64,000 nt of DNA. Origin: Patescibacteria group bacterium (GTDB taxonomy: Bacteria; Patescibacteriota; Microgenomatia; UBA12405). Shown piece after piece: positions 4,239 through 64,000 of the stretch. Made by a program: the position numbers and the translations under genes. The stretch spans positions 50,023 through 114,022 of the forward strand of contig JBMNON010000001.1 in NCBI GenBank assembly GCA_050943115.1, read 5' to 3'. Below the pieces are notes generated by a model, which worked only from the letters and a program-made list of their open reading frames with translations, had not been told where the DNA came from and searched no databases. Each line of letters begins with the position of its first letter. Within the stretch, counting starts at the first letter, position 1.

Positions 4239-4418
4239 ATGGCTAAAGCAAAAAAGACACCCAGAATATTAATCGCCCTAAACTGTGCTAAATGCGGCGC
4301 CCAAAATTATCTGAGTGAGAAAAATAGAACCAACACTACTGACAAGCTCAAATTCACCAAGTATTGTCGCTGGTGCAAAACCCGTACCGAACATCGGGAA
4401 TCTACCAAGCTCAAGTAA
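4239..4418 (+). CDS. rpmG: 50S ribosomal protein L33 (zinc-ribbon type)
   Basis: MAKAKKTPRILIALNCAKCGAQNYLSEKNRTNTTDKLKFTKYCRWCKTRTEHRE shows the C..C...C..C L33 signature. Start moved to the internal MAK. Confidence 0.8.
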   Translation: MAKAKKTPRILIALNCAKCGAQNYLSEKNRTNTTDKLKFTKYCRWCKTRTEHRESTKLK

Positions 4419-5464
4419 TGGTCCAAACTGAATCGCTTATTTCCGCCCTGGAAAATATCTACATCTCCCCTTTAGAGCAATGTAACTTGAACTGCAAGTA
4501 CTGCTACACTCACAAAACAAAAAATGTCCTTTCTAATAAACAAATATTAAACTTCGTCCGTGTTTATGGATCATTTTTAAAAAGTTACAGCCGCAAATTT
4601 TTGACAATCTCTCAACTCGGCAACGGACTTGACGGAGGCCAAAAATTTTGTGGCAAGACTGAAAATTCCCCTCGCTACAATAAATACATATCAAATTCTT
4701 TCAACACAAGTGCTTTTGACAGTCTTCAACGCCAAAACATTGACCAGCCCCAAAAACACCTCACCCAAAAGAATACATTATCCCTAAAATCCATCCTTTT
4801 TTGCGGCGGAGAAGTATTTCTTCTCCCTGACTTCCCTCCTCTGGTCAACCAACTTATCTCTCAAGGCATTTTTATTACCATCATCACCAACGGCACTATC
4901 GACCGGCTCTCCGAAATTAAAGACCCAACCAATTGTCAGCTATTAGTCTCCCTCGACGGACCCGAAAAAATCCACGATCAAAACCGAGGTTTGGGTAATT
5001 TTCAAAAGAGTAAAATTTTTATTCGTAATGCACTTAAATTAGGCTTTCCAGTGGAAATTATGTATCTCATAAGTTCCGCCTCTTACCCTTACAGAGACTC
5101 GTTTAACCTCTTTGATTTGCCCAAAACTTATCTTACAGACCGCCTTCATTCACTCGCTCCGGACCAAACCCTGAATATCAAAAAAAACTATCCTACCTAC
5201 CCCGCCAAAAACTTCGGTTGCTTTCAGCTGGCTTTGCAATCCGATACTTATATCTACGGTTGTTGCGAATCCTCAAAGTCCCTCGCCCGAATGTCTGATC
5301 CGCCCTCACGGATAATCGACAACTTCATCAATGCCCTCAAACCCTGCTCCCTCTGCTCCAATAAACAATGTCTGGGTTGCGTTGACCCCAGATACCTTTG
5401 TAGTTACAATTCCGAACTTTCCCAACAAAATTGCCAAAATGTTGTAAAATCTTTTACCCAATGA
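4418..5464 (+). CDS. radical SAM protein with SPASM/twitch-like C-terminal Cys cluster
   Basis: CNLNCKYCY (CxxxCxxC) at residue ~22, GGE motif FCGGEVFLL, C-terminal YGCC...CSLCSNKQCLGC. ATG at 4418 overlaps the rpmG stop (TAATG). Confidence 0.7.
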   Translation: MVQTESLISALENIYISPLEQCNLNCKYCYTHKTKNVLSNKQILNFVRVYGSFLKSYSRKFLTISQLGNGLDGGQKFCGKTENSPRYNKYISNSFNTSAFDSLQRQNIDQPQKHLTQKNTLSLKSILFCGGEVFLLPDFPPLVNQLISQGIFITIITNGTIDRLSEIKDPTNCQLLVSLDGPEKIHDQNRGLGNFQKSKIFIRNALKLGFPVEIMYLISSASYPYRDSFNLFDLPKTYLTDRLHSLAPDQTLNIKKNYPTYPAKNFGCFQLALQSDTYIYGCCESSKSLARMSDPPSRIIDNFINALKPCSLCSNKQCLGCVDPRYLCSYNSELSQQNCQNVVKSFTQ

Positions 5465-6483
5465 ATCAAAAATTTCAATCCCAATTTATCAAGGAATGGA
5501 CAATCCAGCTTGCAAGGGATTTTTTCCTGTCCCGGCACTTTCACGAGGTTGAAACTCCTACTCTCATGCCCCGGATTCCCATCGAACCCAATCTCTACCC
5601 GCTCAAAACCACTTGGGTCGAAAGAAAGCTTGATTTCTACCTGGCTACCTCGCCTGAAAGTTCTCTAAAAAAGTTAATCGCGGATGGTCTTGGCAACTGT
5701 TTTGCCATCAGCAAAGTCTTTCGTGATTTAGAAAATATAGGACCTACTCACAATCTGGAATTTTCCATGCTCGAATGGTATGAAATGGGCAAAACCTATC
5801 ATGATATCGCTCTAACTACTCAAAAATTACTAATACATGTTTACAATGGAATCCAAAATATATTAGGAATCTGCAATAACAATATACTCAACTACCAGGA
5901 TAACATAATTGATCTTAGCCCACCTTGGCACGAATATATCATGACTGATCTTTTTAAAAAATATGCGGATATGGATTTAAGCCAAAATTTAACCACCCAA
6001 AAGCTTAAAACCACCGCCCAAAAAAAAGGTTACAACACCGAAGGTGTTGACTCCTGGGAACCACTCTACACTCAAATATTTATTAACGAAATCGAATCCC
6101 GTCTTCCCATGGACAAACCCGTTATTATCTATGATTTTCCAACTCGCCAATCCCCCCTTTGCCAACCCTGTCCCAATTCCACCACCTTCTCTCAACGTTT
6201 TGAGTTTTATATCGGGGGCATGGAAATTGGCAATGCCTACACTGAATTGACAGACGCCAAGACCTTGGAAAAAAACTTTAAAAAAGAGGCTGCCTACCGC
6301 AAAAACCACTCCCTCCCCCTCCACCCTCCCGATGAAAAATTTGTTGAGGCCATTGGCCGTTTACCCCCCTGCGCCGGTATCGGACTGGGCGTCGACCGTC
6401 TAGCCATGCTTCTTGCCAATACATCCAATATCGAGGATGTTCTCTACTTCCCCACCTCCAAACTTATTTCTGACTCTAATTAG
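5461..6483 (+). CDS. epmA: EF-P--(R)-beta-lysine ligase EpmA/GenX-like (class II LysRS catalytic core, no anticodon domain)
   Basis: FHEVETPTL, ATSPESSLKKLIADGLGNCF, HNLEFSMLEWY (motif 2), RFEFYIGGMEIGNAYTELTD, LPLHPPDEKFVEAIGRLPPCAGIGLGVDRLAML (motif 3) align closely with E. coli EpmA. ATG at 5461 overlaps the rSAM stop (ATGA). Confidence 0.75.
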   Translation: MNQKFQSQFIKEWTIQLARDFFLSRHFHEVETPTLMPRIPIEPNLYPLKTTWVERKLDFYLATSPESSLKKLIADGLGNCFAISKVFRDLENIGPTHNLEFSMLEWYEMGKTYHDIALTTQKLLIHVYNGIQNILGICNNNILNYQDNIIDLSPPWHEYIMTDLFKKYADMDLSQNLTTQKLKTTAQKKGYNTEGVDSWEPLYTQIFINEIESRLPMDKPVIIYDFPTRQSPLCQPCPNSTTFSQRFEFYIGGMEIGNAYTELTDAKTLEKNFKKEAAYRKNHSLPLHPPDEKFVEAIGRLPPCAGIGLGVDRLAMLLANTSNIEDVLYFPTSKLISDSN

Positions 6484-7205
6484 CTTATCTTACTTGCCAA
6501 AACTCTAGCCGCCACCACAACTTCCTCACAGGCTGTTCTCTCTGCTGCCCTTCTTAAAACTTTTGAATACTTTCGCCTGGCTACCCAGGAACTAATTTCC
6601 GCCAATGGATACATATCAACAAAATACAATTTATTGCTTCCGTCTTCCACTACAAAATTTCTGAACTCGTCATGCGCCCGGTGAACACCTCCCAACAAAT
6701 CCGGCAAAACTGGATAACCTGCCTCTTTTTTTGTAACTTCGGCCATCTTGGTGCACCTTTCCAAAAAATAAGCCAATTGACTTCCCACATTGGCACTCAA
6801 CCTCCTCATCTCCGAAAGCGGTTGCCCCTTTATCCAATCCATAGAAATAATACAAACACAACCCGATGCCCATCTGGGATCGTCAACCACTTTCATTTCA
6901 CAACTCGGAATCATATTGTCAAGCCCCCACCTCTCGTCCTTAAGAAAATTAATACTTCTCCCCACTAGCCTTTCGTAATCTGATTTTTCCGGTATGCAGC
7001 TAAAGCCGCTTCCTGGCAAGTCGGGCAAATTAGTTACCTGTTTATGAACCCTGCCCTCTTTAGGGACCAAAACCATCGTATTCAAACCCATCTCTATCGT
7101 TCCCACAATGTATTCTACAACATTACCCCAAGGCTTGATAAAATAAAACAATATGACAAAAACAACTGAAAATAACCAACACCAACCGGAGCCCGCCCTA
7201 CCCAA
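6480..7205 (-). CDS. protein-kinase-like fold protein (Kdo/WaaP/KdkA-like), start uncertain
   Basis: HRAHDEFRNFVVEDGSNKLYFVDMY resembles a kinase catalytic loop plus a metal-binding D; the N-terminus is hydrophobic. Confidence 0.3.
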   Translation of the reverse strand: MGRAGSGWCWLFSVVFVILFYFIKPWGNVVEYIVGTIEMGLNTMVLVPKEGRVHKQVTNLPDLPGSGFSCIPEKSDYERLVGRSINFLKDERWGLDNMIPSCEMKVVDDPRWASGCVCIISMDWIKGQPLSEMRRLSANVGSQLAYFLERCTKMAEVTKKEAGYPVLPDLLGGVHRAHDEFRNFVVEDGSNKLYFVDMYPLAEISSWVARRKYSKVLRRAAERTACEEVVVAARVLASKIS

Positions 7206-7300
7206 GCGGCCCCCGATTCCTCAAATCCATCAAAAACCTTCTTTTGGCAATAAATCGTTCAACCGTACTTTCAACACACACAACCGTGGCCGCCGCTGAC

Positions 7301-8443
7301 TTATATCTTCTTCAATATATTCAATAGCTTGCCGTTAATCTTGTCCGGAGTAAAAACCTGCTTCATCCTATCCCTTACCTTGCCGCTTACTTCCTGGCGA
7401 TTAATTTCTCCGACCTTTTTATATACTTGAGCTGTCGACCTAAAATCTACCACCCAATCTTTTAAACCTAATTTTTTGAAAGTTTCTGCCACCCCCATAT
7501 TGGAGCTAACCAGAGCCGGAGTTCCGCAGGCAACGGCCTCCTGAGCTACATTTCCGTAAGTCTCAAAAAATGAAGGGCTCAAAACTACCCCCATATTACC
7601 ATAGAATTTAGCCAACCTCTGGTTATTCATCGGTTTAATTAACTTAACAAAATTATACAAATCACCCACATCATTTTTAGCCTTCTTGGTATCAGTTACC
7701 ACGTTAATTCTAAACAAATCACCGCGTTTATGGTTATATCTAACCAACTTCTTCACAAAATTTGGATTTTTTATATTTGACCAACGGCTAACTAAACCGA
7801 CGTTTTTGGCAGAACCCCCCTTCTTAATATCAAAGAAATGTTCCGGCACCGGATTGGGCAGCACTGCCCCCTGGCAAATCTTATGGCCAAAAACTTCGTT
7901 TTCAACAGTCTCCTTAGCTAGTTCCGACGGAAAAACATAGAACAATCTATCGTTGTCAAATGTCTTCTCCATTTCATTTACCAGTTTTCTTGGTTTTTCG
8001 TCCATATGCTCTGTTTCTTTAGTCAATATTCCGTGATAATGCAAAACCATTGACTGATTATTCTTATTCGACCCGGCCATAAATAAACACCATGGTACAA
8101 AGTATGTACCATTTACCAAAATTACGTCCGGCTTTTCCTTTTTAATTACTTCTTTATAGGTATCTATCAACTCTTGATAAGAGTTTTTTATGTCTTCAAC
8201 ACTTTCGGAATCCTTCAGCACATCCGCAAACACCTTGCATTTTTTATTAACTTTAAGCAGCTCAAAATTCTTCTTATCTTCTTTGTAAATTCCACTTTCA
8301 CAAGCATTCGGCTCTCCGCAAATTTCCACCCCGACAATTTTAACCTTCTTCTTTGAATCACTTTCTACATAATTAACAAAATTGGAAAAAGTCTGTCCGA
8401 TTCCTCCTAGTGGATTAGTTTGAACATTGGTTAATATTTTCAT
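7301..8443 (-). CDS. glycosyltransferase, GT4 (GT-B fold)
   Basis: FFETYGNVAQEAVACGTPALVSSNMGVAE matches the GT4 E..G....EA.A.G.PV motif. Confidence 0.65.
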   Translation of the reverse strand: MKILTNVQTNPLGGIGQTFSNFVNYVESDSKKKVKIVGVEICGEPNACESGIYKEDKKNFELLKVNKKCKVFADVLKDSESVEDIKNSYQELIDTYKEVIKKEKPDVILVNGTYFVPWCLFMAGSNKNNQSMVLHYHGILTKETEHMDEKPRKLVNEMEKTFDNDRLFYVFPSELAKETVENEVFGHKICQGAVLPNPVPEHFFDIKKGGSAKNVGLVSRWSNIKNPNFVKKLVRYNHKRGDLFRINVVTDTKKAKNDVGDLYNFVKLIKPMNNQRLAKFYGNMGVVLSPSFFETYGNVAQEAVACGTPALVSSNMGVAETFKKLGLKDWVVDFRSTAQVYKKVGEINRQEVSGKVRDRMKQVFTPDKINGKLLNILKKI

Positions 8444-8694
8444 AAGAAATCTCCATTCAAAAAATTATAGGATAGACTTCTATTTTACCATACGTTCACT
8501 TTATGTCAAAACATACAATTATAGGATTATCCGCGTCTTCTTATCATTCTCTTACACTAAGCTTACTCTCCCCTTAAACTTTGACCGTATCCTTATTCTT
8601 GAAAGGCACAAATAAAAAACACCAAGGTGAACTCTACCCCGTTGTGGGTCATACAAATTCAGCACCTTGGTTTTTTTATGTTATATTAGATTTC

Positions 8695-10116
8695 ATGCCC
8701 CGCCAGCCAGACAAATTGGTCTTCGTTGATATCGAAACTACCGGCACTAATTCATTTCGGGATCGTATCATCGAAATTGCTGCCCTCAGGGTTGAAAACG
8801 GACAGCTAATCGATACCTTTACAACCCTTGTCAATCCTGAATGCCACATTTCTCCTTTCATCGCTCAATTTACCGGCATCTCAGAGAAGGATTTGGAGAC
8901 AGCCCCTACTTTTGCTGAAATTAAAGAAAGACTGGAAGAAATTTTGGAAGGCTGCATCTTTGTCGCCCATAATGCGCGCTTCGATTATTCCTTTGTTAAA
9001 CGCAATTTAAAATTCCTAGGCGCAACTTATACCGCCCCCACTCTATGTACCGTCAAGCTCTCTAGAAACCTCTTCCCCCAGTATCGTAAACATGACTTGG
9101 ACAGTCTTATTGCCCGGTTTAATTTCGAATGCCCTAACCGCCATCGGGCTTATGACGACGCCAAAGTTCTCTTGGATTTTTACAACTATATAACCAAAAA
9201 TATTTCATCAAAGATAAATCATCATGCCTTCAGTCAAATCCTCCAAAAGCCTTCGCTGCCACCACATCTTGATCAAGCCCAAATTGATAGTCTTGACCAA
9301 TCCCCCGGTGTTTACATTTTCTACGATTCAAGAAATAATCCCCTATACGTTGGTAAAAGTAAAAATCTTAAAACCCGCGTTCTCTCCCACTTCCAAAATG
9401 ACGTCAATTCCAACCGGGAACTCGCTTTATCCCAAGCCACTGCTTCCATCAAAACCATTCCTACCGCCGGTGAGCTTGGAGCTCTTCTGCTTGAGTCCCA
9501 ACTGATAAAAGAACTTCAGCCCACCCATAATAGGCTTCTTCGCCACCGCAAAAAAATAGTTCTGGCAAAACAAACAACTGATAACAACGGCTATTATTCT
9601 GTTATCTTAGAGCCGGTTAAACGCATAACTCTGGAAAATACTTCAACGCTTCTCTCAGTCTTCAAAAACCAAAAACAAGCCATCGAATCCCTGCACCAAA
9701 TCGCCAAAAATCATCAACTATGCCCCAAGATCCTAAATCTCGACAAAAACAAAAATGCCTGTTTTAACTACCATTTGGGATTATGTAAAGGTGCCTGCAT
9801 CCAAAAAGAGAAGCCCCTTTTCTACAATATCCGCTTCCTTGAAGCTTTTTCCAAAAGAATCCAACCATGGCCTTTTGACGGTCCTGTTATTATCACCGAT
9901 GTTAATCCTGAAAACGGGATTACCGATAAATTTCTGGTAAATTTTTGGTGCTACTTAGGCAAACTTGAAGCGGAAGAACACACTGTTGATGCCACATGCT
10001 CTCAAAATAATTTTGATTACGACACTTACAAAATCCTCAATCGTTTTATCAACTCAAATTCCAATCAGTCCGCAATTACACCCCTCACTGCCTCTATCAA
10101 TTCATTTGAAGAATAA
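8695..10116 (+). CDS. DnaQ-like 3'-5' exonuclease fused to GIY-YIG nuclease domain (Cho/UvrC N-terminal-like)
   Basis: LVFVDIETTG (Exo I), FVAHNARFDYSF (Exo II), HRAYDDAKVL (Exo III); then GVYIFYDSRNNPLYVGKSKNLKTRVLSHF is GIY-YIG. Start moved to MPRQ (8695). Confidence 0.65.
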   Translation: MPRQPDKLVFVDIETTGTNSFRDRIIEIAALRVENGQLIDTFTTLVNPECHISPFIAQFTGISEKDLETAPTFAEIKERLEEILEGCIFVAHNARFDYSFVKRNLKFLGATYTAPTLCTVKLSRNLFPQYRKHDLDSLIARFNFECPNRHRAYDDAKVLLDFYNYITKNISSKINHHAFSQILQKPSLPPHLDQAQIDSLDQSPGVYIFYDSRNNPLYVGKSKNLKTRVLSHFQNDVNSNRELALSQATASIKTIPTAGELGALLLESQLIKELQPTHNRLLRHRKKIVLAKQTTDNNGYYSVILEPVKRITLENTSTLLSVFKNQKQAIESLHQIAKNHQLCPKILNLDKNKNACFNYHLGLCKGACIQKEKPLFYNIRFLEAFSKRIQPWPFDGPVIITDVNPENGITDKFLVNFWCYLGKLEAEEHTVDATCSQNNFDYDTYKILNRFINSNSNQSAITPLTASINSFEE

Positions 10117-11372
10117 TAGGCATAAAGCTCCTGCTCCCAGCTTTTTGATCTAATGTCAATTACGGGGTCAACACCTTTACCCTCAATCGGCTGTCCGTCT
10201 TCTCTCAAAGTTAAGCTGTGAACCAGGAACATTGAATGTTTTTCATCATCGGCAATCTGCTGTTTTAACGGAAAAACCCTCTCCACGGTTCCCCATCCCT
10301 TGCTCTTTGTCCCCACCAAAACTCCGACGTTATACTTTTTCAGAGTAGCCGCCATTAATTCCGCAGTAGATTGGCTGTTTTCATTTATTAAAATTACCAC
10401 CTTTTTAAATCTCACCATGCTTTCCATCCAGCCTACTTTAGTCTTAAAATCCACCTTTTCTCCTTGGTGAAAAAACTGATAAGCATACTGGTCCATTCCG
10501 ATAAATGGTCCCAAGAAGTATGGCAGCTGATCTATTGCCCCACCGATATTATTCCTTAAATCAAAAATTAGGTTCTCGACCCCCGTTCTGTCACCCAATT
10601 TCCCCATCACCCTGTTCAGCTCCTCAAAAGTCGTTGGAGAAAACTTTGTTAAATGGACATAATAAGTACTGTTATTTACAAGTTTGTAATCCATCGTCGG
10701 TTCAATTCCGGAAATATCATAAACTTTTCTGGCCTCCTCGTCCTTTAGCACCTTATATGCTTCCTGGATTTGTGCAAACTTTTCTGCAGCCTCGGGGTCA
10801 TCATTCGTCTCCGGATCCCATTCGGCCGACTTTTCGTTAAATGCCTTATCAATTGCACTTTGGGATGCTTGTTTATCTACCCCCAAGGCCTCATAGCGAT
10901 CCTGTCCGGATCTATTGGTTACATTGTCGCTTAATTCTTTTTCCTCTTTTTGGGTATAAAGCCTACTCCGGCCGAAAGGTTCCAAATTTGACAAGACCAC
11001 ATCGGCCAAAGTAGCACTAAACTCCTTCCTTTTCTCATCGCTGTCATACTGGTCCAAGATATCCAGCAAAGCCTTATTCCAAGTCACCTTATTTACTTCT
11101 GTTAAATTTAACGGCTGTCCAGTTAACTTCTCGGCCCCTAGGATAAAAAAATTCAAAAGGTCCGGCTCCTCCATCTTATTCCAGTGATTCTCTTTTATCG
11201 TTTGGTAGACCTCGTCCAAAAATAATGCATACTTATTCTGGCTCACGCCTGCAATCTCAGGTTGTACATCGGTAGCTTTATTTTTATTTCCCAAAAAGTA
11301 CCCTGCCGCCCCCCCGATTCCCAAAACCAAAAACATCACCAAAATCAGGGGCAGTAATTTTTTCAAGCGCAT
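10065..11372 (-). CDS. membrane-anchored S41 C-terminal processing peptidase with J-domain-like insert in place of PDZ
   Basis: LIFDLRNNIGGAIDQ, VVILINENSQSTAELMAATL and GVLVGTKSKGWGTV are S41 motifs. N-terminal TM. Residues ~158-222, DRYEALGVDKQASQSAIDKAF...EKFAQIQEAYKVLKDEEARKVYD, resemble a DnaJ J-domain with HPD replaced by DPE. Confidence 0.7.
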   Translation of the reverse strand: MRLKKLLPLILVMFLVLGIGGAAGYFLGNKNKATDVQPEIAGVSQNKYALFLDEVYQTIKENHWNKMEEPDLLNFFILGAEKLTGQPLNLTEVNKVTWNKALLDILDQYDSDEKRKEFSATLADVVLSNLEPFGRSRLYTQKEEKELSDNVTNRSGQDRYEALGVDKQASQSAIDKAFNEKSAEWDPETNDDPEAAEKFAQIQEAYKVLKDEEARKVYDISGIEPTMDYKLVNNSTYYVHLTKFSPTTFEELNRVMGKLGDRTGVENLIFDLRNNIGGAIDQLPYFLGPFIGMDQYAYQFFHQGEKVDFKTKVGWMESMVRFKKVVILINENSQSTAELMAATLKKYNVGVLVGTKSKGWGTVERVFPLKQQIADDEKHSMFLVHSLTLREDGQPIEGKGVDPVIDIRSKSWEQELYAYYSSNELIEAVRGVIAD

Positions 11373-43223: not shown

Positions 43224-44231
43224 TTGATAACAGATTCTAAAAAGATTGCCATTTATTTAACTAATAAATGTAACCTTAAATGCAAACACTGCTTCATGGA
43301 AGGATCTCCCATGAACGACAGTTTCTTAAGCTGGGGTCAGATAAAAACGGCTCTCAGCAATTTCTTTTCCCAGGACTTCAAACATGTCGAACTTTCCGGA
43401 GGCGAATCCTGCCTCTCCCCCTATTTTCTCGACGCTATAAATGAGGCCAAAAGGATCGGCTACACTGTCGGTGTCAGTACCAATGGCACTAACGGTCATA
43501 TATTTAAAATTATTAATCCCAAAATTGTAGACAAGATCACTTTCAGCCTCGATGGCGCTACCGCCTCAACCCATGCCCGTCTTCGCGGACCACAAGCTTA
43601 TGAGCTCTGTTTAAACAACATCAAAAAAGCGGTTTCCCAAGGGTTTCGTGTCGAAGTTGTTTATACCGTTCACCGCTATAATCTCAAAGAAATCGCTCCT
43701 GTTATTAAACTTCTCGATAAGCTCAAAGTAGACCGTCTCACTTTTGGTTTTATCAACAATGCCGGGTCGGCTACTTTAAATCAGCATTTCCTTCTTGAAG
43801 CCAAAAATTGGATAACAGCCAAAAAAGATATCGAAGCCCATTCTAACACCCAACACATGAGCATCCGCTATCCGCCCCTTTTTGTCACTAAGTCCGAATT
43901 TGAGGCTATTAAAACTAATACCGATTACCGTTGTCTTGTCGCTGACCCTGTCAAAATTGAAATCTACCCTGATGGATACTTTTACGGTTGCTGCTTTGTT
44001 ACATCCAACAAAGATTTATCCCTAGGTAAAATATTTGACGATCATGTTGAGGCCGACAACACTAATGCCAAAAACTTCTCCCAAAAATATTGTGCCAAAA
44101 GCTGTCCGGCAATTCAAACTAGTCTTATCTTCTCCAACAATAACAAACTAGTTCCCGTCTGCCTCTACTGTAAAATTATTACCCAGCCCCATCCTGTCAA
44201 CAAGATGCTCGGTGCCAAATCCCATAGTTGA
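43224..44231 (+). CDS. radical SAM/SPASM-like protein (paralog of 4418..5464)
   Basis: CNLKCKHCF (CxxxCxxC), GGESCL, C-terminal FYGCCF...CAKSCP...CLYC; shares a Y.YGCC motif with the first rSAM. Confidence 0.7.
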   Translation: MITDSKKIAIYLTNKCNLKCKHCFMEGSPMNDSFLSWGQIKTALSNFFSQDFKHVELSGGESCLSPYFLDAINEAKRIGYTVGVSTNGTNGHIFKIINPKIVDKITFSLDGATASTHARLRGPQAYELCLNNIKKAVSQGFRVEVVYTVHRYNLKEIAPVIKLLDKLKVDRLTFGFINNAGSATLNQHFLLEAKNWITAKKDIEAHSNTQHMSIRYPPLFVTKSEFEAIKTNTDYRCLVADPVKIEIYPDGYFYGCCFVTSNKDLSLGKIFDDHVEADNTNAKNFSQKYCAKSCPAIQTSLIFSNNNKLVPVCLYCKIITQPHPVNKMLGAKSHS

Positions 44232-56463: not shown

Positions 56464-57477
56464 TTATATAACACTTACCTTGCAAAAATCTACGATACTA
56501 CCAACAGTCGTCTCCACGATACGGCCTATCGCCTCCCTGGTATTAAAGGCATTATGGGGTGTCAACACCACGTCATCCCGGTCCCGCAATAAATGATAGC
56601 TGACCATTTCCCTCAAATCATCCTTCGTCACACCATTAGCCAACACTCCCTCTCCGTTATCAATCAAAAGTCCTTCTTCCTCAACTACATCCAAACCGGC
56701 TCCGGCCAAAATACCTTTATTAAGCGCCCACACTATCGCCTCCGCCTCCACCACAGTCCCCCGCGAAGTGTTAATCAGGATACATCCCCGTTTCATCAGT
56801 TTTATGTTCTCTTTGTTTATCAAATGGAATGTTTCCGGAATACTGGGCACATGCAAACTGACAAAATCCGATTCTTTCAAACACTTTTCCAAATCGGCAT
56901 ATTTAAAACCCATTTTTTTCTCGAGTCCGGGTACTCTGTGTCCATCGACCCCCAAAACTTTCATTCTAAAGCCTCTGGCGAAACGAATCATATTTTGTCC
57001 TATCTTTCCAACACCAATTACACCCATAGTTTTTCCGGCCAAATCCACACCCGTCAAACCTTCCGGACTAAAGTAATTCTCTTCCACAGCCTGGTGCCCG
57101 CAGACAATTTTCTTGGCAACGGCCAAAAGCAACGCCATTGCGTATTCAGCCACCGTCTCCGACCCGTATACCGGCACGTTTTCCACCTTAATTCCCCTAC
57201 TCTTAGCTTCCTCCACATCTATATGGTCAATCCCCGTCGATCTGGAAGCAATCATTTTTAGCTTCGGCAATTTTTCCAAAACCTTCTTGTCCATTTTGGA
57301 ATATATAAAAGTTGAAATTACATCATATTCTTTGGCAATTTCCAAATCTTCATGAACTTCTTTTTCAAATATCCCAATCCCGAAACTATCAATCCGCGAA
57401 ATCTCTTTTTCGATAATCTCCCTTTCCCACGGCTTAACTCCAAAAAAGGCAATCTTAAAATTTTCTCTGTTATTCAT
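56464..57477 (-). CDS. D-isomer-specific 2-hydroxyacid dehydrogenase (D-lactate dehydrogenase-like)
   Basis: GKTMGVIGVGKIGQ NAD-binding; catalytic R/E/H region VLTPHNAFNT. Confidence 0.75.
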   Translation of the reverse strand: MNNRENFKIAFFGVKPWEREIIEKEISRIDSFGIGIFEKEVHEDLEIAKEYDVISTFIYSKMDKKVLEKLPKLKMIASRSTGIDHIDVEEAKSRGIKVENVPVYGSETVAEYAMALLLAVAKKIVCGHQAVEENYFSPEGLTGVDLAGKTMGVIGVGKIGQNMIRFARGFRMKVLGVDGHRVPGLEKKMGFKYADLEKCLKESDFVSLHVPSIPETFHLINKENIKLMKRGCILINTSRGTVVEAEAIVWALNKGILAGAGLDVVEEEGLLIDNGEGVLANGVTKDDLREMVSYHLLRDRDDVVLTPHNAFNTREAIGRIVETTVGSIVDFCKVSVI

Positions 57478-57969: not shown

Positions 57970-58932
57970 TTAAGAAACTAACACTCTTCCCCTTGGTGTT
58001 CTCTTTACCAGCCCCTTTTTCATCAAAAATGGCTCGTATACTTCGGTAATCGTACCCACATCCTCGGTCAATGCCGCTGCCAAATTCTCCACTCCCACCG
58101 GCCCGCCATCATAATGCACCCTGATCACCTCCAAATATTTTCTGTCCGCCTCCGATAGTCCCATTTCATCCACTCCCAGCATCTTTAATGCTGTTTTAGC
58201 TTCATTTATGGTAATCAGTCCGTCGTTGTTGACTTGGGCATAATCTCTTACCCGCCGCAGTAGACGATTGGCCACCCTGGGCGTCCCCCTTGACCTTTTG
58301 GCAATTTCCAATGCCGCTTCTTTCTCAATTTTTACCTTCAAAACTTCTGCCGTTCTCTCCACAATTTCCCTCAAACTGTCCTCCGTATAAAAATCCAATT
58401 GCTGGACGTAACCGAACCTGTCTCTCATTGGTCCGCCGATCAATCCGATCCTGGTTGTTGCTCCTACTACCGTAAACTTCTGTAAATTCAACCTAACCGT
58501 TTTTGCTGACGGTCCCTTGCCCAAAACAATATCCAAAGCAAAATCTTCCATAGCACTGTACAGTGTTTCCTCTACCAGTTTATTCATCCGGTGGATCTCG
58601 TCTATAAACAAAAAATCGCCCTTCTTTAGTCCGGACAGAATTGCTGCTAAATCCCCCGCTCTGGTCAAAGCCGGTCCCGAAGTGATCTTGATATTCGCCC
58701 CCATTTCCTTTGCCATCAGAAAAGACAATGTGGTTTTCCCCAATCCCGGCGGACCGTAAAACAGAATGTGGTCCAACGGCTCACCTCTCGACCTTGCTGC
58801 TTCCAAAAATATCCCCAACTGTTCCTTTAATCTTTCCTGACCGATAAATTCACCTAAACTCTGCGGTCGTAAACTCTTCTCGATAATTTTTTCTTCCTTT
58901 TTTGGCCTGGCATCTAAATTCATATCACTCAT
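57970..58932 (-). CDS. ruvB: Holliday junction branch-migration helicase RuvB
   Basis: [24 protein letters not shown] Walker A, DEIHRM Walker B. Confidence 0.9.
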
Positions 58933-59238
58933 CCTTTTATTCTACATCAAAACCCAAATTACCCTCCCCAAAACCCTATTCAATTCATCAGGCACCACAA
59001 AGTCTCTCTTTACCTATCCCCAAAAATTTGGACCTTGGCTTGCATATTAAAACCCAGTCACCATGTCCATTAACAGGATGAACCGTCTTCTCCTCCCCCC
59101 TGTTGGCTGGACAAACCGGGCATTGCTCCTCCATAGTATATCTGATTCTCTCTTCTGTCCCCTATAGCAATACTCTTCCTGCCGGACAACGGCTCACATA
59201 TACAAATCTGCTGTCTTGTTCCTTTGGCATATTCGTAT

Positions 59239-59811
59239 TTATACCATATTCGCCAGACACCAACTCAACCTTTCCTCCACACCGCCTATCTCCTGCGGCA
59301 GTTTCCTTATCACCGACTCAATTTCCACCCTGCCAAAACCTAATTGTTTTAAGCTCAAATACAAATCATCCTCTACCACCTCACTCTCCTGCCCTAAGTC
59401 CAACTCTCCCAAACCTCCAATTTTTGGCTTTAAGTCAACAATAATTCTTTGGGCTGCCTTCTTGCCGATTCCCTTAATTTTTTCAAAAAACTTCACATCG
59501 GCATCCCCGATAGCTTTTAGAATATCAATATAGCTGCATTCACCCAAAATTTGTGCTGCCGTCTTTGGACCGATTCCGGAAACCCCGATAATCATTTTGA
59601 AAAGCTCCACCTCTTCCGGACTTTCAAAACCAAACAAACTCATGTCAGTCTCTGATACCGCCATGTAGGTTTCCACTCTTATCTCTTCGCCTTCTTTATG
59701 TTTCCGAAGATAGCCGTTGCCTACTCTTACCAAATATCCCACTCCATTAACATCAATCTCTATCAAACTACCTCTTGTTCTGCTGATTATCCCCCTTAAA
59801 CTGGAAATCAT
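59239..59811 (-). CDS. ruvA: Holliday junction DNA helicase RuvA
   Basis: MISSLRGIISR...GVGYLV; GVSGIGPKTAAQIL HhH motifs. Confidence 0.8.
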   Translation of the reverse strand: MISSLRGIISRTRGSLIEIDVNGVGYLVRVGNGYLRKHKEGEEIRVETYMAVSETDMSLFGFESPEEVELFKMIIGVSGIGPKTAAQILGECSYIDILKAIGDADVKFFEKIKGIGKKAAQRIIVDLKPKIGGLGELDLGQESEVVEDDLYLSLKQLGFGRVEIESVIRKLPQEIGGVEERLSWCLANMV

Positions 59812-59827
59812 AATTTATTATAAAGGA

Positions 59828-60427
59828 TCATTTGCCCAAATATCTCTCCGTCGTTCTCCTGGCCCTGTCCAAAATTCCCGCGGCCTCCTCCGCTGCCTCT
59901 GATCCCTCCATATTTCTTATAATAAAATAGTCAGCCCAATGGACAAAAGGGGTGAACGCCTTATTTTCTCGACTGCCGTATCTTTTCTCCGATTCAATAG
60001 CATTATAATCATGGGCCAAATCCCACAAAAAGTTCAATTCTTCCACCTGATCCATAGATCCTTCTTTCATTTTCCTGTAAGCTTCCGGATGGATAATCAT
60101 CACAAATTTATTGCCCCGCCTGCTTTCCTTGATTCTTTTAACCCTTACCTGGTTCTCATCGTAGGTATACAATTCCCCCTTTTTACCACTGTACAACCCT
60201 TCCTCATCTACGGCAACCACCACCCCCTCCCTATCCAATACTTCTTGGAATCTTGTCAACGCCTCACCGCTGCTTCTTCCGTTGTAAAGATTCTCCAAAC
60301 CACCTCTCAGTGCTCTGATGCCTTCAGAACTTCCCACGAAATTGGCCGCCTCTCTTCTTATATCCGTTTCCCTTACTTCCTTCCTGACACCCATAAATAA
60401 TTCTTTTATTCCGCCGTCAATTCCCAT
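59828..60427 (-). CDS. hypothetical protein inserted between ruvA and ruvC
   Basis: ORF, moderately GC-enriched; no family recognised. Confidence 0.4.
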   Translation of the reverse strand: MGIDGGIKELFMGVRKEVRETDIRREAANFVGSSEGIRALRGGLENLYNGRSSGEALTRFQEVLDREGVVVAVDEEGLYSGKKGELYTYDENQVRVKRIKESRRGNKFVMIIHPEAYRKMKEGSMDQVEELNFLWDLAHDYNAIESEKRYGSRENKAFTPFVHWADYFIIRNMEGSEAAEEAAGILDRARRTTERYLGK

Positions 60428-60435
60428 AATGTCTC

Positions 60436-60702
60436 CTATTCACACGCCCAATCCTCGCAATTTCCCCTCTTGCATTGTAAATCCAATAGACAAAAACAAT
60501 TTCTGCCCGAATTCCACAATCCGCATCTTTCCTCCTCATCTTCCTCCCCTTCCAGATAGCCCATCTCCGTGTTCATCACATATTTTTCTTCGGCAAAATT
60601 CCTGTTGTCCTGGTTTTGTCCCACCAGCCTCAAAGCCAAAGGCAGCGACAAAACCATAATTGCCAGCACCAACACCAGGGGAATTTGCGTTAATCCTTTC
60701 AT
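60436..60702 (-). CDS. small secreted 6-Cys peptide (paralog 1)
   Basis: Signal peptide, then C-terminal RCGLWNSGRNCFCLLDLQCKRGNCEDWACE. Confidence 0.45.
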   Translation of the reverse strand: MKGLTQIPLVLVLAIMVLSLPLALRLVGQNQDNRNFAEEKYVMNTEMGYLEGEEDEEERCGLWNSGRNCFCLLDLQCKRGNCEDWACE

Positions 60703-60706
60703 ATTT

Positions 60707-61036
60707 TCATTTTACACTTTCGTCTTCACAATACCAATCGACACAGTTTTTACTCAAACACTGGTTGCTCATCAGACAAAAGCAGCCTTCCTTTAAGTTG
60801 ATTAAAACGCATTTTTCCTTTACCTGCACACTACCATACAAAGTCGCCATCTCATCCACCTGGTTAACTTCCAAAATATACGGATCTCTGCCAGGTAATT
60901 TGTCGGAAGCCCTATCCCGTAAATCCCTTTTTTCTTTAACAGACTTCACCAAAGTCGGCAGCATCCCCGCCATAAACAGCATTATCACAATAACCCCGAT
61001 ACTTGATCCACCATCCTGCCTTTTTACTGGGCCCAT
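60707..61036 (-). CDS. small membrane-anchored/secreted 6-Cys peptide (paralog 2)
   Basis: C-terminal KCVLINLKEGCFCLMSNQCLSKNCVDWYCE shares the C..C.CL...QC...NC.DW.CE spacing with paralog 1. Confidence 0.45.
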   Translation of the reverse strand: MGPVKRQDGGSSIGVIVIMLFMAGMLPTLVKSVKEKRDLRDRASDKLPGRDPYILEVNQVDEMATLYGSVQVKEKCVLINLKEGCFCLMSNQCLSKNCVDWYCEDESVK

Positions 61037-61056
61037 TTACATAAATTGTACTCTAT

Positions 61057-61527
61057 TTAAGCTACTTTTAGTCGGGCCGTAAATAAGTGTGTCAAAGCCA
61101 CCGCCACCGCATCCGAAGCGTGTCCTGGCTTTATCGGCTCACTTCTCCCCAAAAAATTCCTCACCATCATCTCCACCTGTTCTTTTTCCGCCCTTCCGTA
61201 ACCCACCAAAGCCATCTTTACCTGTAGGGGGGTATATTCCTTTACTTCTATTCCGCTTTTTTGTCCGCACACCTTTAACACTCCTATCGCTTCCGCCACC
61301 TTTATCGCCGATTTGGCATTTTTAGCAAAATAAAGGCTTTCGATAGCCACCTCTCTCACACCATATTTATTTATGATTTGTTCTAATTCGGTATATATCT
61401 GATATAGCCTAATTGCTGAACTGTTTTCAATTTTTGTCCTAAAGCAACCACAGTCCACCAATGTCCTTTCGTCCTTTAAAACCGCCCAACCGGTATTTGC
61501 TAAACCCGGATCAATTCCCAATATCAT
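61057..61527 (-). CDS. ruvC: crossover junction endodeoxyribonuclease RuvC
   Basis: MILGIDPGLANTGWAVL; catalytic acidic residues follow the RuvC pattern. Confidence 0.8.
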   Translation of the reverse strand: MILGIDPGLANTGWAVLKDERTLVDCGCFRTKIENSSAIRLYQIYTELEQIINKYGVREVAIESLYFAKNAKSAIKVAEAIGVLKVCGQKSGIEVKEYTPLQVKMALVGYGRAEKEQVEMMVRNFLGRSEPIKPGHASDAVAVALTHLFTARLKVA

Positions 61528-62350
61528 TATTTTCTGAAATTATAACCTGCCTCTCTAATATACCACTCTTGATCTTAAATTCCGTGTACCTGGGTGCCTG
61601 AGTATTCCGGTTTCTGCTGACTGCCCCAACCAGATAAGTCCTGATTCCGTCAATCTCATAAGAACTGGAATAGTGTAAGTGACCGGCAATAATATCCTTA
61701 ACCCCTTCGTTTCTCAGAATCTCCAACAAATTTTTAGCCTCCCTGCTTACTTCTTCGTTGCCCTCCCCCATCACATAGGTTGAAAAGTTGTGATTAAGCG
61801 GCATATGCATTACCGCCACACAATAATAATCCCCGCACTCATCTAGCTCTTCTTTTATCCAGTCAAACTGCTCTCTCCCCAAACCTTTTTCGCTGCCGTT
61901 GTTTATCAGAATAAACTTATTGTCTTCGGTCTTAAAGCTTTGGTATTCTCTTCCAAAATATTCAGAAAACACATTTTCCCCGTTCTTCTCGCCCCACCAC
62001 AAATCATGATTTCCGGGAACGGCATAATAGCTCACCCCGCCCCTCTCCAGCATCTCCTTTGCTTTTGCTGTCTCCTGCCTGGTCCCCAGTGAAGTCATGT
62101 CCCCGGCCACCAAAACAAACTCACTGCCCCTTTCCCCAGCCTTTTCCAAAAATTTCTCCATGTCGCTCCAATTCAAATGAATATCAGCCATTACAGCAAA
62201 CCTTACCTCCCTTGCCTCCTTCACCGTTGGCTCAATTTCTGTTGGCTCACCTTCAGTCTTTATTACCCCACCGTCCCAAAAACCGTATCTCCAGGCTACC
62301 AATGCCAACAAAACTAATACGATTACCCAATTCATCAGCTTTCTTGTCAT
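61511..62350 (-). CDS. membrane-anchored calcineurin-like metallophosphoesterase
   Basis: AVMADIHLN, VAGDMTS, VPGNHD, GHLH are the metallophosphoesterase motifs. Confidence 0.65.
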   Translation of the reverse strand: MTRKLMNWVIVLVLLALVAWRYGFWDGGVIKTEGEPTEIEPTVKEAREVRFAVMADIHLNWSDMEKFLEKAGERGSEFVLVAGDMTSLGTRQETAKAKEMLERGGVSYYAVPGNHDLWWGEKNGENVFSEYFGREYQSFKTEDNKFILINNGSEKGLGREQFDWIKEELDECGDYYCVAVMHMPLNHNFSTYVMGEGNEEVSREAKNLLEILRNEGVKDIIAGHLHYSSSYEIDGIRTYLVGAVSRNRNTQAPRYTEFKIKSGILERQVIISENNDIGN

Positions 62351-62534
62351 TCTTAATTTTACCTAATTTATTAAACAAACAAATTATAGGATAAGTTAAT
62401 AATTACTCACTTTTCCACATCAACAACCTATAATTAGATATTACATAAATTTCATCAATGTTATTAGGATAATATCCTTGAATGTCACCTGCTGTTAGGT
62501 TAAACAAGCTCCTGTACATAAGCTATAATCACTT

Positions 62535-63491
62535 ATGGACCAGTCCCTTGTCCTTCAAATCCAAAATCGCTTTCCTGAAATTAACATCAAAACTGATTAT
62601 CCCCTGGCTCCTTTCACCACCTTAAAAATTGGCGGTCCTGCCGATATATTTATTCAAACCGAATCGGTATCTCAGCTTACCCGTCTCCTTACTTTCTTGG
62701 CATCCCAAAGTACCCCCATTACTATCCTTGGCAACGGTTCCAACATTCTCATCTCCGATTTCGGACTCTCCGGCGTAGTCATAAAAAACACCGGCAATTC
62801 TATTACTACTTCCGAATCTAATCCCAACCACGTTACTATCTCTTCCGGTACCAGTTTGGCTTATGCCATTAATTGGACTCTAGACCATCACCTTACGGGT
62901 CTTGAATATTACGCCTATATCCCCGCCACCATCGGCGGTGCCGTTTATTCCCATATCCATGGTGTTGAAAATCATCAGTTTTCTCAAATCCTCAACACTG
63001 TCACCGTCTTTAATCTTAAAAAACGAAAAGTTGAAAACTTGCAGGCAACCGCTTTGAAATGGGCTTATGACTACTCCCAGCTTCAGGACGAACCCCACCT
63101 TGTTATTCTCTCCGCCAAGTTCAATCTAATTCCTGGCAACCCCCAAAAAGCTAAACAGTTCGCCAAAGATATTATTGACCAAAAATCATCAGTTCAACCA
63201 CTTAATTCCGCAGGATCGGTATTTAAAAATCCCACACCCAAAGACTGCCTTCCCCTGTGGGGCGAAACCAAATCTGCCGGTTGGATTATTGAACACGAAC
63301 TCAACTTAAAAGGTTATTCCTTGGGTGACGCTCAGATCGGCCCTCAGCACGCCAACATCTTCACCAACCAGGACAAGGCTACCGCTTCTGACTTCTACCG
63401 TCTTATCCGGCTCGTCCAGGATCAATCGCTAAAAAAACTGGGCTTACCCCTTCAATTAGAAATTCAACTTCTCGGCCAATTTAAAGACTAA
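62535..63491 (+). CDS. murB: UDP-N-acetylenolpyruvoylglucosamine reductase (short form, second copy)
   Basis: LAPFTTLKIGGPADIF, ITILGNGSNILI, and C-terminal SAGSVFKNP and GDAQIGPQHANIFTN. Confidence 0.75.
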   Translation: MDQSLVLQIQNRFPEINIKTDYPLAPFTTLKIGGPADIFIQTESVSQLTRLLTFLASQSTPITILGNGSNILISDFGLSGVVIKNTGNSITTSESNPNHVTISSGTSLAYAINWTLDHHLTGLEYYAYIPATIGGAVYSHIHGVENHQFSQILNTVTVFNLKKRKVENLQATALKWAYDYSQLQDEPHLVILSAKFNLIPGNPQKAKQFAKDIIDQKSSVQPLNSAGSVFKNPTPKDCLPLWGETKSAGWIIEHELNLKGYSLGDAQIGPQHANIFTNQDKATASDFYRLIRLVQDQSLKKLGLPLQLEIQLLGQFKD

Positions 63492-63750
63492 ATATTCTCT
63501 TGGATTTCCTCTTCCCAAGGAGCCAAAGGGTGTCTTCTCCTTCTTATCTGAATCGCATCCGCCTTTTCCGGGTCCAAGTCCTCAACAAAGGTTTCATCAA
63601 AACAATAAGCTCCGTCCCTCAACCTGATTCCATAGCTCACTCTCTCATTCACCAGCTTCCAAGCTCTTACACCTATTCCGCTTATATGTTCAACTATCCC
63701 ATGGCACCCCCCACAAATCCTTAATAAATATCTTTAATTTTAAAACGCTA

Positions 63751-64000
63751 CTATGTTACTTTTCCACTATCAAGCAATATCCTGGCAACAAACTTCGGCA
63801 GTTCCATCTGCCTCCTCCATCTTTTTGGTTCTTTGACAAGTGAGTATAGCCACTCCAAACCCATCTTCCTAAGCATCATAGGAGCCCTTTTTAAATCACC
63901 ACTGTAATAGTCAAAACTCCTCCCGACTCCCATCACCATGCCTACTTTTAATTTCTTTAAATTTCTGTCAATCCATTCCTCCTGCCTTTTCATTCCATAA
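63751..64000 (-). CDS. GT26 WecG/TagA/CpsF-family glycosyltransferase (3' part; continues beyond window end)
   Basis: GMKRQEEWIDRNLKKLKVGMVMGVGRSFDYYSGDLKRAPMMLRKMGLEWLYSLVKEPKRW matches the GT26 C-terminal signature. The frame is open to nt 64000. Confidence 0.6.
   Translation of the reverse strand, partial: YGMKRQEEWIDRNLKKLKVGMVMGVGRSFDYYSGDLKRAPMMLRKMGLEWLYSLVKEPKRWRRQMELPKFVARILLDSGKVT

Follow-up and report, generated by a model that had tools for sequence, protein, structure and literature searches.

Conserved signal sequences that accompany the exported proteins of one bacterial lineage have been described, the lineage-specific YSIRK-type signal peptide of Gram-positive surface proteins being an example. 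Small exported proteins with a conserved N-terminus and a variable, cysteine-stabilised C-terminus are represented by type IV pilins, and short cysteine-patterned modules by Colipase/Dickkopf-type domains and knottins. In the present study, a 64-kb stretch of DNA (the window, in whose numbering coordinates are given) from a Patescibacterium was analysed, in which two small open reading frames (ORFs) on the minus strand, pep109 (109 aa, 60707..61036) and pep88 (88 aa, 60436..60702), lie together with an orphan 199-aa ORF, hyp199 (59828..60427, minus strand), between ruvC and ruvA of a ruvCAB operon. It was found that pep109 and pep88 form a new, tiny and very narrowly distributed family of small exported cysteine-rich proteins rather than a new system, and that the locus in itself is ordinary accessory-gene content.

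The reading considered rather probable is that both are leader-driven small exported proteins with one six-cysteine disulfide module each, that they would serve in surface or extracellular binding, and that they represent accessory cargo and not precursors of ribosomally synthesised and post-translationally modified peptides (RiPPs).

The nearest counterparts of the two proteins were large proteins of the Microgenomates/Shapirobacteria lineage, which have a homologous leader with a cysteine-rich region right after it. They differ in their length of 400–630 aa, dozens of cysteines, Pro/Thr linkers and often a dockerin-like C-terminus, whereas pep88 and pep109 contain a single module only. Like the YSIRK-type signal, the leader is conserved in sequence, beyond hydrophobicity, over many unrelated cargo proteins of one lineage, but its motif is another one, it is about 45 residues long and has NQDxRxxAA conserved behind the helix, and it is known here from sequence alone. 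As in the canonical ruvCAB operon, all three ruv genes occur at full length by Pfam and in one orientation; the window differs in an insert that places ruvC and ruvA 1245 nt apart, filled by unrelated genes, and in a 48-aa ORF between ruvA and ruvB.

Leader Sequence and Large Cysteine-Rich Proteins

An exhaustive HMMER profile search with the family alignment against 1.84 billion representative proteins recovered only an orthologue from the closest sequenced species (L007; L### denotes fetched loci or contigs and P### protein-search matches), the pep88 cluster, a lone distant small relative (P0005, 99 aa, E 2.7e-6), five large proteins of 417–562 aa (P0007–P0011), and one artefact, the low-complexity repeat protein P0006, which was discarded. 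The five large proteins matched only the first ~45–100 profile positions. They open with a highly conserved unit, for example KGLAQIPLILGLLVMAVAIPVATKLVQENQDSRNQAA, and contain 44–55 cysteines each. The leader of about 45 residues follows the consensus (K/R)-G-L-A-Q-I-P...P...K-L-V-x-x-N-Q-D-x-R-x-x-A-A, and consists of basic residues, an invariant Gly, a Pro-containing hydrophobic helix of about 20 residues, and then LV-x-x-(N/Q)-Q-D-x-R-x-x-A(A).

A leader hidden Markov model (HMM) built solely from the five large proteins was searched among 6670 ORFs and returned pep88 (E 3.2e-15), P0005 (6e-9), the L007 orthologue (8.5e-4) and pep109 (1.2e-3); the leaders of the small and the large proteins are homologous. 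In pep88, a canonical leader occupies residues 2–37 (60592..60699, minus strand; KGLTQIPLVLVLAIMVLSLPLALRLVGQNQDNRNFA). In pep109, a degenerate copy at residues 9–43 (60908..61012, minus strand), delimited by the HMM and the alignment, has the invariant Gly, a hydrophobic helix with Pro, and V..(K/Q)(R/Q)D.R..A. Each small ORF contains one N-terminal hydrophobic helix, and the AlphaFold2 (AF2) model of pep88 showed it as one continuous helix, residues 7–41, at moderate confidence.

A degenerate DNA pattern of the leader led to six metagenome contigs, five of which gave more leader-bearing cysteine-rich ORFs. The ORF in L061 is incomplete at the contig end, and the complete ones contain up to 60 cysteines and Pro/Thr-rich linkers. 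The large class, with P0007–P0011 and ORFs in L058–L062 and L066 as examples, has no Pfam or NCBIfam model. The C-terminus of P0008 is dockerin-like, with a weak Dockerin_1 match (E 0.0028; 18.2 bits against a cut-off of 22.9), and that of P0007 resembles it by eye, with no Pfam match. The P0008 gene belongs to a Shapirobacteria genome (same contig as L017) and lies three genes upstream of Cohesin-domain and Dockerin genes; its immediate neighbour has a leader variant, ...LLLVKQNQDVRRGAA. Because large leader proteins occur in this Cohesin/Dockerin context, and because the neighbour carries a leader variant, the leader is regarded as an export signal of extracellular proteins in the Microgenomates/Shapirobacteria lineage.

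Sequences of different cargo diverge abruptly after RxxAA, which suggests a processing boundary after the helix rather than before it. Judged by their architecture, pep88 and pep109 are minimal members of the leader-bearing cysteine-rich class, composed of the leader, a short acidic linker and a single module.

Leader-bearing cysteine-rich clusters were also observed downstream of a Glyco_hydro_39 gene in L063 (6001–10573; Candidatus Shapirobacteria JALHFY010000001.1) and in L066 (4301–7623). The former also holds Cohesin-domain and Dockerin-domain proteins, and in the latter two leader-bearing genes stand in tandem. The domain content suggests a cohesin–dockerin surface assembly in Shapirobacteria.

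Six-Cysteine Module

As determined by regular expression and alignment, both small ORFs end in C-x8-C-F-C-L-x3-Q-C-x3-N-C-x-D-W-x-C-E, that is, with the generic spacing C-x8-C-x-C-x5-C-x4-C-x4-C-E and loop lengths of 8, 1, 5, 4 and 4. The module lies at 60725..60811 in pep109 (CVLINLKEGCFCLMSNQCLSKNCVDWYCE) and at 60439..60525 in pep88 (CGLWNSGRNCFCLLDLQCKRGNCEDWACE), both on the minus strand. A preceding interpretation made from the letters and ORF translations of the window (the sequence-only reading) had correctly described the spacing as identical in both; its first loop of x7-8 is x8 in both, and its x5 and x4 hold as Cys-to-Cys distances including the named residues, not as loop lengths. 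An acidic linker, EGEEDEEE, precedes the module of pep88, and the post-leader parts of both proteins, about 50–65 residues each, are acidic (isoelectric point, pI, 4.2–4.5).

The spacing C-x8/9-C-x-C-x5-C-x4-C-x3-5-C was found once each inside P0008 and the ORFs of L058 and L062. This corresponds to three of nine large leader-bearing proteins, versus 0.002 expected from shuffles, and at the level of cysteine pattern the module recurs in the large class.

Pfam, NCBIfam, PHROG and PADLOC contained no family for pep109 or pep88, giving only a sub-threshold Colipase match. The Colipase N-terminal model (PF01114) scored 14.3 bits on full-length pep109 and 20.4 bits (E 4e-4) on its isolated module, and two of seven modules matched. 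Colipase/Dickkopf-type domains and the module are both short and have a ...C-x-C...QC-x-S-x-x-C... pattern in common, but the scores are below the 27-bit gathering threshold, the match spans 22 residues, and no PDB sequence relative was found. Neither the peptide profile nor the module profile produced a credible match in PDB sequence searches; chance matches to PCNA and USP14, obtained in profile and hyp199 sequence searches, were discarded. Knottins follow the loop consensus C-x3-7-C-x3-8-C-x0-7-C-x1-4-C-x4-13-C with connectivity I–IV, II–V, III–VI. The first two loops of the module (8 and 1) fall outside these ranges, and the AF2 model of the module, from which its connectivity would be read, is of low confidence.

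Paralogy and Coding Character of pep109 and pep88

The two proteins are 32–33% identical (tblastn E ~1e-11). The common C-terminal cysteine motif of about 28 residues described in the sequence-only reading was confirmed, but the similarity is nearly full length, covering 96–100 aa. The view that they constitute a duplicated cysteine-rich mini-protein family with export signals was thus borne out, both by this paralogy and by the leader HMM matches.

The closest sequenced species, L007 (RuvC 81% identical), contains one pep109 orthologue exactly between ruvC and ruvA. It comprises 106 aa and is 51% identical to pep109, agreeing with it in the start region, in the leader invariants and in all six cysteines. 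By the Nei–Gojobori method, the ratio of non-synonymous to synonymous substitution rates (dN/dS) was ~0.32 for pep109 versus the L007 orthologue and ~0.31 for pep109 versus pep88, compared with ~0.06 for the ruv genes; the peptide ratios are upper-bound-like, and therefore conservative, since synonymous sites approach saturation.

With a log-odds score for codon usage, for which 25 long window ORFs served as the training set, the annotated frames reached 0.167 (pep109), 0.159 (pep88) and 0.233 (hyp199), each being the best of six frames; native genes scored 0.180 ± 0.047, and overlapping plus-strand ORFs were negative. The five-gene arrangement was intact in six other independent assemblies of the species, with pep109 identical in all six; the species is carried by samples SRR31061296, SRR27676599, SRR29782965, SRR19732723 and ERZ27293234. 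Since an orthologue occupies the same junction, codon usage is native and the ORFs are intact in independent assemblies, pep109 and pep88 are not spurious, and by these comparisons they are genuine, paralogous genes. Nor is the motif without homologues, as the sequence-only reading had allowed for: profile and regular-expression searches found the L007 orthologue, P0005 and the module in three large proteins.

pep88 is equally distant from pep109 and from the L007 orthologue, and its leader is the more canonical one; for these reasons, the duplication is taken to be old, not recent.

Proposed Mechanism and Alternative Explanations

In the proposed mechanism, the leader would direct Sec-type insertion in an orientation that leaves the N-terminus in the cytoplasm and the C-terminus outside. 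Once exported, the module would fold into a compact extracellular unit with three disulfides, and the mini-protein would either stay tethered by its helix or be freed after the RxxA(A) site. Its role would then be that of a binding module at the surface or outside the cell, as in the large dockerin-bearing proteins of the lineage; such a role is proposed because the six-cysteine module appears to serve in this way structurally in the large dockerin-bearing proteins. Of the functions considered in the sequence-only reading, an adhesin module came nearest, given that the leader and the six-cysteine unit occur in these large extracellular proteins.

An extracellular destination is supported by the Pro/Thr linkers, the 46–61 cysteines and the dockerin/cohesin context of the large members, and by analogy with them the small proteins would be located outside the cell with oxidised cysteines. 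Genes for an MdbA-like oxidoreductase and VKOR, which serve in extracellular disulfide formation, are common in bacteria of the candidate phyla radiation (CPR) (Meheust et al., bioRxiv 10.1101/335083). The literature on cysteine-rich secreted proteins of CPR/Patescibacteria provided general context only (MdbA/VKOR, pilins), with a passing mention of a 'secreted cysteine-rich protein' for Roizmanbacteria.

Several points weigh against this interpretation. pep109 has more positive charge after the helix than before it, and because of this the positive-inside rule alone would favour the reverse topology, with a cytoplasmic, possibly metal-binding cysteine domain. The leader match of pep109 (E 1.2e-3) is marginal. 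The AF2 model of pep88, computed from a five-sequence alignment, had an overall predicted local distance difference test (pLDDT) value of 53, and its six-cysteine module only 40–47, so the fold and disulfide pattern are not fixed by the model. The family proper comprises three protein clusters and one distant relative, which leaves small comparative power; within the species, pep88 shows two non-synonymous and 0–1 synonymous differences, too few to test selection. Expression of both genes is a prediction from sequence, and nothing in the analysis points to a specific ligand.

Among the alternatives, a pilin-like nature was considered unlikely. The proteins would then be tiny subunits with a disulfide-knotted head and a class III signal, which a PilD-type peptidase would cleave behind the invariant Gly. 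As in type IV pilins, this Gly, with Lys/Arg before it, directly precedes a hydrophobic stretch of about 20 residues; pep88 begins MKG/LTQIPLVLVLAIMVLSLPLAL, a short basic leader ending in Gly and followed by such a stretch. The KGLAQIP positions are conserved, which is unusual for Sec n-regions, the AF2 helix is continuous, the N-terminal ~45 residues are conserved while the C-terminal part is hypervariable and cysteine-stabilised, and type IV pilus genes abound in CPR genomes (10.1101/335083). However, position +5 after the Gly is Pro and not Glu, there was no match at E ≤ 1 to Pfam N_methyl (PF07963) or NCBIfam TIGR02532, the same leader is found on very large cargo, namely dockerin-bearing proteins of 400–630 aa resembling ordinary secreted proteins, and the abrupt divergence after RxxAA places the suggested boundary after the helix. 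Slightly less credit was given to the possibility that the ORFs are spurious, or decaying remnants of a larger cysteine-rich gene without function. The tiny size of the family, the restriction of hyp199 to one species, the extreme strand asymmetry of the window with its many long non-coding ORFs, the weak Shine–Dalgarno sequences before pep109 and pep88, and the within-species differences of pep88 would agree with it, whereas the six cysteines, leader invariants and start position kept across paralogues and species at dN/dS ~0.3, the codon usage of the own frames, the intactness of the ORFs in seven independent assemblies, and for hyp199 a strong AGGAG and a 4:2 ratio of synonymous to non-synonymous differences, argue against it.

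It was regarded as quite improbable that pep109 and pep88 form a bacteriocin or toxin pair with hyp199 as an immunity or accessory protein; a toxin or bacteriocin nature of the peptides had been raised in the sequence-only reading. Tandem small exported cysteine-rich peptides are followed by a co-oriented gene of no known family, and their strain- or species-level distribution is as narrow as in antagonism loci. Yet in L007 the peptide orthologue is accompanied by neither hyp199 nor a second peptide, genes for an ABC transporter, a C39 peptidase or membrane immunity are absent from the locus (hyp199 lacks a transmembrane segment), PADLOC and PHROG searches were empty, and the leader is not of the double-glycine type but the one used for export in this lineage generally. 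Most membrane-active bacteriocins are cationic, and the post-leader parts here are acidic. The proposal to assay activity against host Actinobacteria, as for Saccharibacteria, had no basis, because the organism is not a Saccharibacterium. The least probable explanation, to which hardly any weight was given, is that the peptides are RiPP precursors whose cysteines are cross-linked by radical S-adenosylmethionine (SAM) enzymes of the SPASM type encoded elsewhere in the window. Six cysteines within 28 residues would suit it, and two radical SAM ORFs of the window, at 4364–5464 and 43224–44231, are weakly similar to many radical SAM/SPASM maturase models. These ORFs are, however, 55 kb away beside an EpmA homologue and 16 kb away beside MurF, respectively; every maturase model scored 26–76 bits against cut-offs of 170–850, no Pfam SPASM match at E ≤ 0.01 was found, and L007 and P0005 have no radical SAM neighbour. 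The speculative SPASM link was accordingly rejected, together with the RiPP explanation: the leader contains a membrane helix, common to exported proteins of 400–630 aa and incompatible with a cytoplasmic precursor. The earlier argument that an export signal speaks against a RiPP precursor therefore held.

The radical SAM ORF at 4364–5464 (plus strand) overlaps the start of an EpmA/GenX homologue (elongation factor P, EF-P, lysine aminoacylase) at 5431–6483 (plus strand), which scored 272.7 bits, just under the 286.9 cut-off. Its pairing with the EpmA homologue suggests a role in EF-P modification, perhaps EpmB-like, rather than in peptide maturation.

The ruvC–ruvA Junction in Relatives

The junction was surveyed in 13 Microgenomates relatives fetched with RuvC. 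In nine of them (L008, L009, L011, L014–L019), ruvC and ruvA were 0–104 nt apart with nothing between. In L007, one peptide gene filled the junction; L010 encoded an unrelated HExxH-motif protein of 210 aa (4521–5153, plus strand), and L013 an unrelated 228-aa protein (6468–7154, plus strand) and a DUF2284-like 158-aa metal-binding protein (7190–7666, plus strand), with about 2 kb of extra genes (8291–10288), one of them with a Trans_reg_C-like domain, between ruvA and ruvB. In L012, ruvA was absent within 6 kb. It was evident that the two small ORFs lie inside an otherwise conserved ruvC–ruvA–ruvB arrangement, as had been claimed; its continuity, for which a comparison of relatives had been proposed, was found in the nine relatives and not in L007, L010 and L013. 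Since some relatives hold unrelated genes there, insertions are tolerated at this junction.

About equal distances separate the window species, L007 and L008 (81–84% identity for RuvC, 70–76% for RuvA, 90–92% for RuvB), and the peptide gene would for this reason be either ancestral and lost in L008, or gained twice. Linkage of the peptide relatives to ruv, which the sequence-only reading had put forward as a check, was seen for the L007 orthologue and not for P0005, the only distant relative, whose neighbours are an acetyltransferase, KTI12/AAA_33, an SNase-like gene and TspO; the ruv position is hence taken as incidental.

Comparison of the insert flanks gave only chance-level repeats of 10–24 nt. 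Neither an integrase nor a compositional anomaly marked the insert, GC content and codon usage being native. Scans of viral contigs, for which hyp199 and the peptide alignment were the queries, were empty, as was a metagenome back-translation scan with the peptide alignment, and word-indexed protein searches (pep109, hyp199, three-sequence alignment) returned only self matches and the L007 orthologue. A mobile element or genomic island was rejected on the grounds of missing flanking repeats, native composition and the failure to find phage or viral relatives. pep109, pep88 and hyp199 are accessory cargo in an insertion-tolerant gap, with no sign of a functional tie to Holliday-junction processing.

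Features of hyp199

The hyp199 gene has AGGAG 7 nt before its ATG. It is confined to the window species and absent from L007, and four synonymous and two non-synonymous differences separate it from the copy in L002. The protein is predicted to be soluble and acidic, with pI 5.8. With a GC content of 0.452, its gene deviates by no more than one standard deviation from the 25 long window ORFs (0.427 ± 0.025), so that the moderate GC enrichment ascribed to it was not meaningful. No family was found in Pfam, NCBIfam, PHROGs or PADLOC and no PDB sequence match, and the AF2 model (pLDDT 36.6) was too low in confidence for fold comparison. Homology to the 210-aa HExxH protein at the same junction of L010 was rejected (E 0.21). 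Judged from its sequence features, hyp199 is probably a real, fast-evolving orphan cytoplasmic protein, and it has no evident functional tie to the peptides.

Organisation of the Operon and Neighbouring Genes

The source organism is a Microgenomates/Shapirobacteria-type Patescibacterium, whose nearest RuvC relatives are metagenome-assembled genomes (MAGs) of Candidatus Shapirobacteria and other Microgenomates; its protein database entry reads 'Patescibacteria group bacterium' MAG. The genes form a packed, co-oriented minus-strand block (57970–62350) in the order Metallophos, ruvC, pep109, pep88, hyp199, ruvA, ruvB. The ORF list and Pfam matches of the ruv genes confirmed the presence, strand and common orientation of all ORFs given in the sequence-only reading. 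The block begins with a calcineurin-like phosphoesterase gene (61511..62350, Pfam Metallophos 4.9e-18), which overlaps ruvC by 17 nt and also stands upstream of ruvC in L007, L008, L011, L013 and L017–L019. The Holliday junction resolvase gene ruvC lies at 61057..61527 (Pfam RuvC 7.5e-44, full length), ruvA at 59239..59811 (Pfam RuvA_N and HHH_5) and ruvB at 57970..58932 (Pfam RuvB_N 4.8e-75, AAA_lid_4, RuvB_C), all on the minus strand.

The gaps are 20 nt (ruvC–pep109), 4 nt (pep109–pep88), 8 nt (pep88–hyp199) and 16 nt (hyp199–ruvA), and a consensus scan of the minus strand from ruvC to ruvA found no terminator-like site. Because of these gaps of 4–20 nt and the absence of a terminator-like site, pep109, pep88 and hyp199 are probably co-transcribed with the Metallophos–ruvC message.

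A TTTATAAT box was observed 4–7 nt before the ruvA ATG in the window (59812–59830), in L007 (6835–6850) and in L008 (4325–4340), kept in all three despite a different gene upstream in each. It could be the -10 element of a nearly leaderless ruvA transcript, in which case ruvA expression would be independent of upstream inserts.

The 306-nt spacer between ruvA and ruvB (58933–59238) contains an uncalled 48-aa ORF (58988..59134, minus strand; MEEQCPVCPANRGEEKTVHPVNGHGDWVLICKPRSKFLGIGKERLCGA) with a CPxC...C...C pattern that looks zinc-ribbon-like and with no Pfam match. A counterpart of 49 aa is present at the same site in L008 (60% identity, E 1e-17), with a proportion of non-synonymous differences (pN) of 0.24 and saturated synonymous sites, and in L007 only its last 16 codons are left. 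The second ruvCAB junction therefore also holds a small accessory gene. An Rfam scan of 56–64 kb gave chance-level matches only.

Variation was also observed beside the operon within the species. In L002, L003 and L005, a 1-nt indel relative to the window leads to a Metallophos gene called at 275 instead of 279 aa, with an altered end and a changed ruvC overlap. In L004 (1–2270; Logan SRR29782965), ORFs of 288, 75 and 158 aa replace murB upstream of the Metallophos gene (window 62350–64000), the latter being 98.1% identical to the window copy; the replacement points to a strain-level rearrangement immediately beside the operon.

Over the whole window (1–64000), plus-strand GC skew was -0.19 to -0.52 in every long ORF of either orientation. 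This strand-wide compositional asymmetry is independent of the coding strand and gives rise to many long antisense ORFs, such as 56593–57261 and 59939–60400, both on the plus strand. An unusual strand composition disparity has reportedly been noted in a Microgenomates genome (PMC7143001).

Biological Significance

CPR/Patescibacteria are generally regarded as living in attachment to other cells, and their surface proteins are almost wholly uncharacterised. pep88 and pep109 provide two tiny, tractable representatives of a lineage-wide leader-bearing cysteine-rich class. Both internal ruvCAB junctions accept small accessory genes in this clade, which calls for caution when the function of a gene in a streamlined genome is deduced from the operon in which it lies.

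Most deserving of further study is the conserved, unmodelled leader of about 45 residues common to many Microgenomates cysteine-rich surface proteins. A bolder idea, to which a low probability was assigned, is that the leader is an undescribed Microgenomates-specific sorting signal that routes a repertoire of cysteine-rich surface proteins, with pep88 and pep109 as its minimal cargo. Such a signal could be a divergent form of the class III or pilin type, or could be processed by an enzyme dedicated to it, and if this were true, pep88 and pep109 would be ideal reporters for dissecting the leader.

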